Shown: piece by piece, positions 60,760 to 61,203 of the stretch
How the letters are laid out: every line of letters starts with the position of its first letter
How positions within the stretch are numbered: the stretch's first letter is position 1
NCBI GenBank assembly: GCA_964016885.1
Contig: OZ024745.1
Span: 81,282,001 to 81,346,000, forward strand
From: Eledone cirrhosa
Taxonomy: Eukaryota
Direction of reading: 5' to 3'
Length of the DNA: 64,000 bases
Program-made: the position numbers and the translations under genes
The notes under the pieces: model-generated
Database searches by the model: none
The model's input: the letters and a program-made list of their open reading frames with translations, nothing else
What the model was told of the DNA's origin: nothing

Positions 60760-60763
<4 letters not shown>

Positions 60764-61194
60764 AATTAAGTTAAGAATGTACATCCACATATGTATACTG
60801 AAATGCTAGTATGCATATGAATACACACACGTATACATATGTAGATGTACCAAGTTTTTCACTGGTCACTTTAGTGTGAGTGTCCAGCTATTCTGTATGT
60901 AAACACACAGACAAACCGGTTTTTAGAGTCATACTGGTTTTTGAGGAAACACCTTTCCTCTATTCTCCAGAAAGCCAGACAAGGAATATTGAACTAGTTT
61001 CGTTGTTGTTACAACTCATCAGCAATATTTACCTATCTTCCAGCCTTTCTGGAGAATCGTAAAAGCACATATCGTTATATGCTTTTTCTATGAAAATTAG
61101 TAGTGGGCAGACTAATTTGCATAGAGCGTGAGTACGTACCGGTTCAACGGAGACGATAAAAACAAATAACAAAACGAAATTAAATTTCGTTTCG

Positions 61195-61203
<9 letters not shown>
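60760..61203 (-). mobile_element. Non-coding HHR family G unit; HHR 60985-61029
   Basis: aatattg-CTGATGA-GTTGT-aaca-ACAAC-GAAA-CTA-GTT-caatatt; shares motifs with the 472-bp unit. Confidence 0.82.

Follow-up and report, generated by a model that had tools for sequence, protein, structure and literature searches.

Two sister families of hammerhead-bearing repeats from Eledone cirrhosa as probable non-LTR retrozymes with a Penelope-type insertion footprint

A 64-kb stretch of the Eledone cirrhosa genome (hereafter the window, i.e. the whole stretch of DNA analysed) harbours two related families of non-coding repeats, one with a unit of 466 bp (family G) and the other with a unit of 472 bp. Both are best explained, with a probability of roughly 0.85, as non-LTR retrozymes inserted in trans into (TA)n by a Penelope-type reverse transcriptase (RT)/GIY-YIG protein. 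Judged from the sequence, every feature of non-LTR retrozymes that can be looked for at this level was found in the two families, and neither is an autonomous Penelope-like element, the ORF for RT plus GIY-YIG being absent. The preliminary description spoke of a diversified class of small non-coding elements with a hammerhead ribozyme; it was correct as to the nature of the elements and not as to the novelty of the class, since non-LTR retrozymes are already known. The two families are likely new members of it.

Units of the two families and their homology

The window is AT-rich and is split by microsatellites into 60 blocks. The copy of family G at 60760..61203 (minus strand) comprises ∼0.94 of the 466-bp unit, stops at a fixed end, designated “short”, at 60760, and is flanked by (TA)n on both sides (60726..60760 and 61204..62149). 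Read on the minus strand, it contains a palindrome (61193-61172), ACTCAC (61133), the octamer ATGCAAAT (61122) with its partner ATTTTCAT ending at 61090, GATAGGTAAA (61037-61028), CTGATGA (61022) and GAAACTAGT (61001), i.e. all the motifs named in the preliminary description, each where it had been placed. A long TA/TG-rich hairpin (60780..60850, minus strand) lies immediately before the short end, and the 472-bp unit has one too.

The second G piece is located at 1710..1994 on the plus strand. It had been described as a body followed by the palindrome, which is correct, and only its limits (given as 1709-1993) had to be adjusted: the body (1710-1924) is followed by a linker (1925-1953) and the palindrome, and a second fixed end, designated “long”, leads into (TA)n at 1994. 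The body matches G positions 231-444 at 97.7% (215 columns) and 1954-1994 matches G positions 8-48 in 40 of 41 letters, while the linker is missing from the 60760 copy. Four public sequencing runs, of the 24 containing G words, were aligned to 60754-61209 and gave 957, 0, 21 and 38 aligned records, the zero belonging to run X22. One contig of run X5 passes from 61196 to 60759 through 28 letters, which are the reverse complement of window positions 1926-1953. In X1 the linker was detected as a loose end at 61196 in 13 contigs and at 60759 in three, and X6 shows loose ends of the same kind, with a variant. The G unit thus measures 438+28=466 bp, and the suggested closure of the two pieces into a ring of roughly 0.5 kb holds for a unit of ∼0.47 kb, both the linker of the fragment and the independent X5 contig joining its ends. 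The contig proves that units lie head-to-tail in DNA, which is no proof of a circular RNA. Arrays with at least two complete G units did not appear, a single junction being the most that was seen, and none of the contigs listed spans such a stretch.

The sister family is represented by 5.6 tandem copies of the 472-bp unit (7196..9846, plus strand), the last of which stops at the short end. CTGATGA occurs once per unit (7202, 7674, 8146, 8618, 9090 and 9562), and the array shows 5 differences in total from its first copy. An inverted 58-bp tail of the unit, 100% identical to 7491-7548, occupies 7140..7197 on the minus strand and has a long end in (TA)n. RT ORFs are absent from both families: the longest ATG frames reach 22 aa in the G copy and 43 aa in the fragment, and the 114-aa frame of the 472-bp unit is a low-complexity, antisense one running across the TA-like tract. 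Both units are devoid of protein coding capacity and of LTR architecture, and the unit closes on itself.

Alignment of G with one 472-bp unit (7487-7958) is colinear, with 289 of 466 columns alike (289 of 399 aligned pairs, 72%). The local score of 651 was not reached by any of 500 dinucleotide shuffles (170.7±23.1, maximum 250; z=20.8); the homology put forward previously was thereby borne out, the alignment being clearly better than that of shuffled AT-rich controls. Taken separately, G20-130 (z=14.8), the hammerhead (z=7.4), the body (z=5.4) and the TA-like tail (z=6.8) are all homologous (0/500 each), the linker weakly so (17/500), and G131-172 not significantly (157/500). The order of motifs proved to be shared, as had been claimed, with the reservation that catac.aa.agtgag, exact in the 472-bp unit (7499), is one base shorter in G and present only in the 1710 fragment, and that the palindrome of the 472-bp unit is a shorter variant of the G one.

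Hammerhead ribozyme and octamer hairpin

A type I hammerhead motif was located at 60969..61040 (minus strand) by folding and by its match to the Rfam model Hammerhead_HH9 (RF02275). It consists of the outer stem I with the loop-1 bulge (61037-61028), the core CTGATGA (61022-61016), stem II with an AACA loop (61015-61002) and GAAACTAGT with a palindromic stem III (61001-60993), and its predicted cleavage site lies between 60992 and 60991. The sequence gatrggtaaa (gataggtaaa in G), previously listed as a separate motif, in fact belongs to this ribozyme, whose outer stem I and loop-1 bulge it forms. G matches the whole HH9 model, these two elements included, with 37.7 bits (E=4.9e-8), a score below the gathering threshold of 52; unlike in HH9, its stem III is shrunk to the palindrome ACUAGU. 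The 472-bp unit scores 18.5 bits (E=0.069), likewise below 52, and at gathering thresholds the whole window gave no Rfam matches. Matches to miRNA and sRNA models at the E-value level fall on the TA-rich hairpin and the palindrome and were judged to be due to chance.

The core is present in G and at all 6 unit starts of the 472-bp array. Helix I has 7 bp, helix II has 5 bp in G or 4 bp plus U.U in the 472-bp unit, and helix III is AC-UA-GU, which fits the canonical metazoan type I hammerhead as given in PMC4209133 (helix I of ∼6 bp, helix II of ∼4 bp and a short palindrome-looped helix III), a form expected there to function as a dimer. In the 472-bp unit, U.U takes the place of the G10.1-C11.1 pair of G, as it does in two further hammerhead families of the window. 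Cleavage is predicted after GUU in this copy of G, after GUC in some other copies, and after GUA in the 472-bp unit with its mismatch at 10.1/11.1. In view of the low scores, the U.U of the 472-bp unit and the GUU of G, the activity of these ribozymes may be low.

Stems I and II differ between the families yet keep their pairing, as the preliminary description had noticed: 14 of 24 letters are changed, and 11 of the 12 pairs hold. Six of the seven changed pairs are double compensatory changes, and the sole broken pair is 10.1/11.1. For these 12 pairs, which were picked from G's own fold, random placement equalled the pair retention in 72 and the double changes in 78 of 200000 trials. Within G, none of the 23 listed variants falls in the 16 positions of the hammerhead core, and one X6 contig appears to carry the stem II pair U190-A201 changed to A-U together with GUU changed to GUC, the linkage being deduced from an identical depth (30.8) and from one contig per row. 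Structural selection on the hammerhead is supported by these comparisons.

Beyond the ribozyme core, the most conserved stretch in terms of sequence (37/46 between G and the 472-bp unit) is that from ACTCAC..TATG through the octamer hairpin ATGCAAATTAG..TAATTTTCAT (61090..61133, minus strand). The octamer is perfect in both families and lies ∼90-100 nt upstream of the hammerhead core, the hairpin being directly 3' of the long end. Its arms are identical in 23 of 24 letters, share a conserved C.U mismatch and show no double changes, and a 21-letter pattern of the hairpin occurs 6 times in the window, exclusively in the two families, and in none of 100 shuffles. Several helices taken singly show no significant covariation, among them the octamer stem (p=0.82), the extended region of stem I (p=0.12) and the next hairpin (p=0.43), and the depletion of within-family variants over G70-145 (1/23 versus 3.9 expected, p=0.08) is not significant either. 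The folds of both units surpass those of shuffled sequences by a wide margin (z=-11.1 and -8.6), and in the whole fold 24 of the 49 changed pairs are kept between the families, a modest excess over the null (15.9±3.0, p=0.007). The structural selection that had been proposed for the elements in general is hence supported for the hammerhead and modestly for the rest of the fold, and does not extend to the octamer hairpin, which is kept by sequence.

This hairpin may serve as an RT recognition site or be part of an internal promoter of the snRNA type. An octamer is contained in the promoter of newt satellite 2. The latter is a hammerhead satellite with a snRNA-type promoter (Coats et al. 1994, cited in PMC2220036), and the analogy would comprise the tandem hammerhead repeat and a possible internal snRNA-like promoter, the octamer being kept in G and the 472-bp unit. 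The hairpin is a candidate for RT recognition because it sits where the minimal RNA requirement of PAc, the Poseidon element of Anolis, is located. A scan of metagenomes with the octamer-hairpin pattern returned 18 loci, none of which is similar beyond the pattern, accompanied by a TA run or judged to be hammerhead-linked (a loose core-like match was seen in 4 of the 18). The same pattern gave no viral loci, and a hammerhead-context pattern was found neither in viral contigs nor in prokaryote genome contigs.

Insertion ends and neighbouring Penelope-like elements

In both families the linker is immediately preceded by the short end (G, 60760; 472-bp array, 9846) and the palindrome immediately followed by the long end (G, 1994; 472-bp unit, 7143 on the minus strand); both ends are homologous between the families, and each adjoins (TA)n. 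The tail between them measures 70 nt in G (1925-1994), with the palindrome inside it (61172..61193 of the other copy, minus strand), and 62 nt in the 472-bp unit (7487-7548). At 61156 (minus strand), the long end within the G unit, 10 X1 contigs exit into TA-repeat-like sequence; the short end of G is defined by one window copy and by reads entering a 6-bp TA flank. On the 5' side of the G copy, an inverted arm (61183..61203, plus strand) runs outward as a long end into (TA)n. It differs from the long end by one substitution and is ∼2-4 nt shorter; the switch takes place within the palindrome, at a point that the letters do not fix precisely. Inverted 5' copies in head-to-head orientation are thus present at 7140-7197, 61183-61203 and 1595-1994.

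Two ends, a tail between them and the inversion of one end make up the “tail” footprint of Penelope-like elements. The tail-plus-inversion pattern is described in PMC3846280, and the tail at one end, the inverted 5' copy and the targeting of (TA)n in PMC8557442. According to PMC11167929, in vitro two internal RT start sites bound the tail, both target strands are nicked and extended at AT-rich DNA, and cleavage is not needed for insertion. The tails of the published elements are 30-40 bp, compared with 62-70 nt here and, by our own reading, ∼45-135 nt in the coding families of the window. The apparent circular permutation noticed earlier would be a consequence of copying that starts at either of two sites inside the repeating unit; instead of two permuted loci, there are two pieces of one tandem unit ending at two fixed, family-wide ends.

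Long and short ends are paired in 13 of the 14 two-ended insertions of the window, coding RT/GIY-YIG elements included, the long end standing in inverted or direct orientation; the 14 were hand-picked from the 60 blocks between microsatellites. The 13 span the coding families H, K, L, M and P (the assignment of P being weaker) and the non-coding 310-bp hammerhead array and family N. The exception is the palindromic insertion 53651-53778, which has the same end on both sides (compare 52851-52934). In the mapping of ends, 22425, 22455 and 32189 are TA runs by their letters, and the diverged ends at 1595, 15546 and 16008, missed by the probes, were read separately. Single-ended blocks and single-copy lopsided palindromes (713-1215, 27155-27368, 54706-54916, 55449-56748, 12201-14557 and 9946-11373) were left out of the 14. 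The first five of these, along with 10062-10370, are lopsided inverted-repeat blocks between (TA)n and probably represent further putative Penelope-type insertions with tails.

The window is rich in pieces of Penelope-like RT/GIY-YIG ORFs. Family H, a coding Penelope-like element with long and short ends in (TA)n (2254..6992, plus strand), is a candidate for the kind of partner that may mobilise the retrozymes; its frameshifted and 5'-truncated ORF (2658-4755) contains YRDD, a CxCx5C linker and a GIY-YIG-like motif. Among the coding neighbours, RW[R/I] and DKT occur in L and P, and CxCx5C in H and L, clade labels being based on such motifs, not on a tree. At E≤0.01, Pfam named 3 of 10 Penelope-type ORF pieces, meaningfully so for 38439-40718 (RVT_1 and GIY-YIG) and 55732-56184 (GIY-YIG), the third hit (18918-19631) being to an unrelated weak family. 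Owing to the small number of Pfam hits, the labels of H, L, P and K rest on the motifs and on an Atlas lead (HTH_animal/GIY-YIG/RVT_1 clusters, score 0.92-0.97). Elements of Neptune type (K and M, with the Cx2-5CxxC linker) are likewise inserted in (TA)n, and the driver need therefore not be of the Hydra clade. A search of the 64-kb window for autonomous elements related in sequence to G or the 472-bp unit found none (the best BLAST match is 28 bp, AT-rich, with E=0.001), and the mobilising partner is therefore a candidate.

Several other features of these neighbours were recorded. Penelope-like elements with Hydra-clade motifs in various copies occupy 2254-6992, 18825-22425, 32188-36398 and 50504-52650; the 3' region of family H contains 139/155-bp repeats, and a run of N (an assembly gap, ∼52650-52850) is found in its second copy. 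P and L have in common a GCTCCTT..CGGTTGAGC hairpin directly after the long end, possibly a protein-binding element. A near-intact Penelope-like element with the Cx2-5CxxC linker and matches to RVT_1 and GIY-YIG is present at 36681-41354 and 62798-64000, where a 760-aa frame (38439-40721) follows a 488-aa frame in another phase (37066-38532), a possible two-ORF or frameshift layout. Pieces of family K, with long and short ends, lie at 22454-24756, 41661-42233 and 54009-54456. The 310-bp tandem array (47378-48989) has a hammerhead core in each unit (CTGAAGA...GAAAC, with U.U at 10.1/11.1) and consists of two arms placed head-to-head, one end being short and the other long; it is a third, apparently unrelated retrozyme-like family. 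Family N (26593-26778 and 61945-62002) is a palindromic insertion with opposed hammerhead-like cores (26649 on the minus and 26656 on the plus strand), and has one end of each type. Between two (TA)n runs, a block of 1 kb (25459-26458) has a textbook-looking hammerhead core at 26378, near its end. A LINE at 27979-31672 (minus strand) and 62150-62426, flanked by (TA)n as well, contains frames for an endonuclease and an RT (RVT_1, E=7e-16).

Of the 14, only the insertion at 1595-1994 combines two families. A 116-bp terminal piece of the Hydra-clade-like family H with its short end in (TA)n (1595..1710, minus strand) meets the G piece and its long end head-to-head, the two overlapping by 1 nt; (TA)n lies on both sides, and the junction resembles the same-family junctions of the window. 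The ordinary reading is a deletion between neighbouring insertions. It is conceivable, albeit rather doubtful, that the two ends of a Penelope insertion derive from two separately loaded RNAs and that 1595-1994 arose in one event, in which Hydra-clade machinery used its own RNA and that of G.

Known systems, alternative explanations and a possible cycle

Metazoan non-LTR retrozymes are described by Cervera and de la Pena (2020, PMC7229834) as non-coding repeats arranged in tandem, with type I hammerheads, giving RNAs of 170-400 nt in both linear and circular form, with Penelope-like elements as strong candidate drivers. G and the 472-bp unit are likewise tandem, non-coding and highly paired, have one type I hammerhead each and a GC content below 50%, coexist as monomers and multimers with Penelope-like elements, and no LTR, PBS or PPT was noticed in them. 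Their 466-472 bp exceed the above RNA sizes and lie inside the 51-972 bp range of units in the preprint of Li et al. (bioRxiv 10.64898/2026.07.22.740005). The same preprint argues for a Penelope origin indirectly, from co-occurrence and homology to the terminal repeats (pLTRs), whereas the two-end tail and the 5' inversion are seen directly here; of the 9 Xenopus retrozyme dimers it reports, 8 were uncleaved in vitro and 1 was cleaved. Unlike the retrozymes described, the two families are located in (TA)n with no visible target duplication. With elements of the Penelope Hydra clade (Craig et al. 2021, PMC8557442) they share (TA)n, the canonical hammerhead, the inverted 5' copy and the tail; unlike those elements, they code for nothing, and they have no detectable sequence in common with their Hydra-like neighbours. 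The two fixed ends, the tail, the AT-rich target and the extension of both strands are paralleled in PAc (Frangieh et al. 2024, PMC11167929). Its tail, however, is placed in the ORF start, downstream of the hammerhead and in an AC-rich stem-loop, whereas that of G and the 472-bp unit is found 130-235 nt upstream of the following hammerhead core, across an A/U-rich hairpin. In the literature searched, with few subscription papers and with Repbase and Dfam outside its range, neither the two families nor a chimeric Penelope insertion of two families was found.

Were the repeats satellite DNAs that landed once as monomers and grew by unequal crossing-over or DNA rolling circle, with the hammerhead as a relic and no circular RNA, the near-homogeneity of the 472-bp array (5 differences) would be expected from recent crossing-over, and the preprint of Li et al. 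discusses such a route for arrays. This is nevertheless unlikely, as it leaves unexplained the scatter of G pieces whose ends in (TA)n are fixed and of RT type, the confinement of double compensatory changes to the hammerhead stems and the fixed letters of core and loop. It can hold for the growth of the array alone, combined with dispersal as retrozymes.

G and the 472-bp unit might also be pLTRs of autonomous Penelope elements located outside the window, the pieces being 5'-truncated insertions. Indeed, pLTRs bear type I hammerheads (PMC4209133) and produce the same tail and inversion pattern, and most Penelope copies are 5'-truncated, families H, K and N of the window among them. This origin is improbable: no room is left for an ORF, the short end being followed by a 28-nt linker and the unit start (window 1925-1994, X1, X5 and X6), the 472-bp unit forms a 5.6-copy array with no RT ORF, and the share of records that continue into unlike sequence is 0 in X1 and X5 and 0.09 in X6. 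No pLTR homologue of the two families was found within the 64-kb window, and G, if derived from a pLTR, would be a pLTR-derived retrozyme, which is compatible with the explanation preferred here.

A self-standing viroid-like circular RNA, replicating at the RNA level, spreading between species and occasionally integrated by Penelope machinery, would be consistent with the folding of both units well beyond shuffles and with the occurrence of G words under 16 organism labels in 17 studies and in one wastewater metagenome. Runs X5 and X6, from two further organisms, contain a near-complete unit, largely at 90-99% identity. It remains a very improbable account, given that the hammerhead is on one strand only, that genomic retrotransposition accounts for every feature, and that the other organisms may be close relatives or carry contaminating DNA. 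Summed contig depth, which was not taken as copy number, amounts to ∼10-30 for the majority of X5 bins and reaches 590 at most in X6, versus 1-6 x 10^5 in X1. Runs X15-X20, the wastewater metagenome included, have a share of 0.20 or less and were not counted as evidence, and X22, a second sample of organism B, gave 0 of 12.8 million reads, which is ∼1/100 of the run and too little to judge absence. The G words outside the host may reflect relatives, contamination or transfer, and a movement of G between distant species, for all the 16 labels, seems improbable as well. Finally, a chance or convergent similarity of two AT-rich hairpins, the last 90 nt of which are microsatellite-like, is refuted by the shuffle test, for the whole and for four regions separately, and contradicted by the colinear order and by the restriction of the octamer-hairpin pattern to the two families.

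If the families are indeed non-LTR retrozymes, their cycle might proceed as follows. The arrays would be transcribed on the hammerhead strand, possibly from the octamer hairpin region, and the multimers would cleave themselves once per unit, probably aided by dimerisation through the palindromic stem III; that the resulting monomers are ligated into circles is slightly favoured over their remaining linear. The partner protein would nick (TA)n, and its RT would start at two internal sites 62-70 nt apart, flanking the linker and palindrome. Of the two nicked strands, one would be primed at the short and one at the long site, and their cDNAs would join head-to-head. Short copying would leave pieces such as those at 60760 or 1710, and prolonged copying, round a circle or down a multimer, would give the 5.6-copy array. 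The 472-bp array, with its 5 differences and its long and short ends, would fit a single multi-unit reverse transcript, and later unequal crossing-over may also have made it homogeneous.

Mobilisation of animal retrozymes has so far been argued from co-occurrence and pLTR similarity, and the two families offer a test case: in two diverged sisters a Penelope tail is kept at homologous positions, together with 5' inversion and insertion in (TA)n, and coding elements next to them bear this footprint as well. As a pair, they pinpoint what is constrained, the hammerhead stems by structure and the octamer hairpin by sequence, and their ends predict where RT would start, which an in vitro assay like that for PAc could use. 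The insertion at 1595-1994 may reveal which enzyme works and whether two RNAs serve each insertion. Should the two-RNA reading be true, it would name the driver, give genomic proof of mobilisation in trans with no shared sequence, and make the octamer hairpin region a candidate recognition element.
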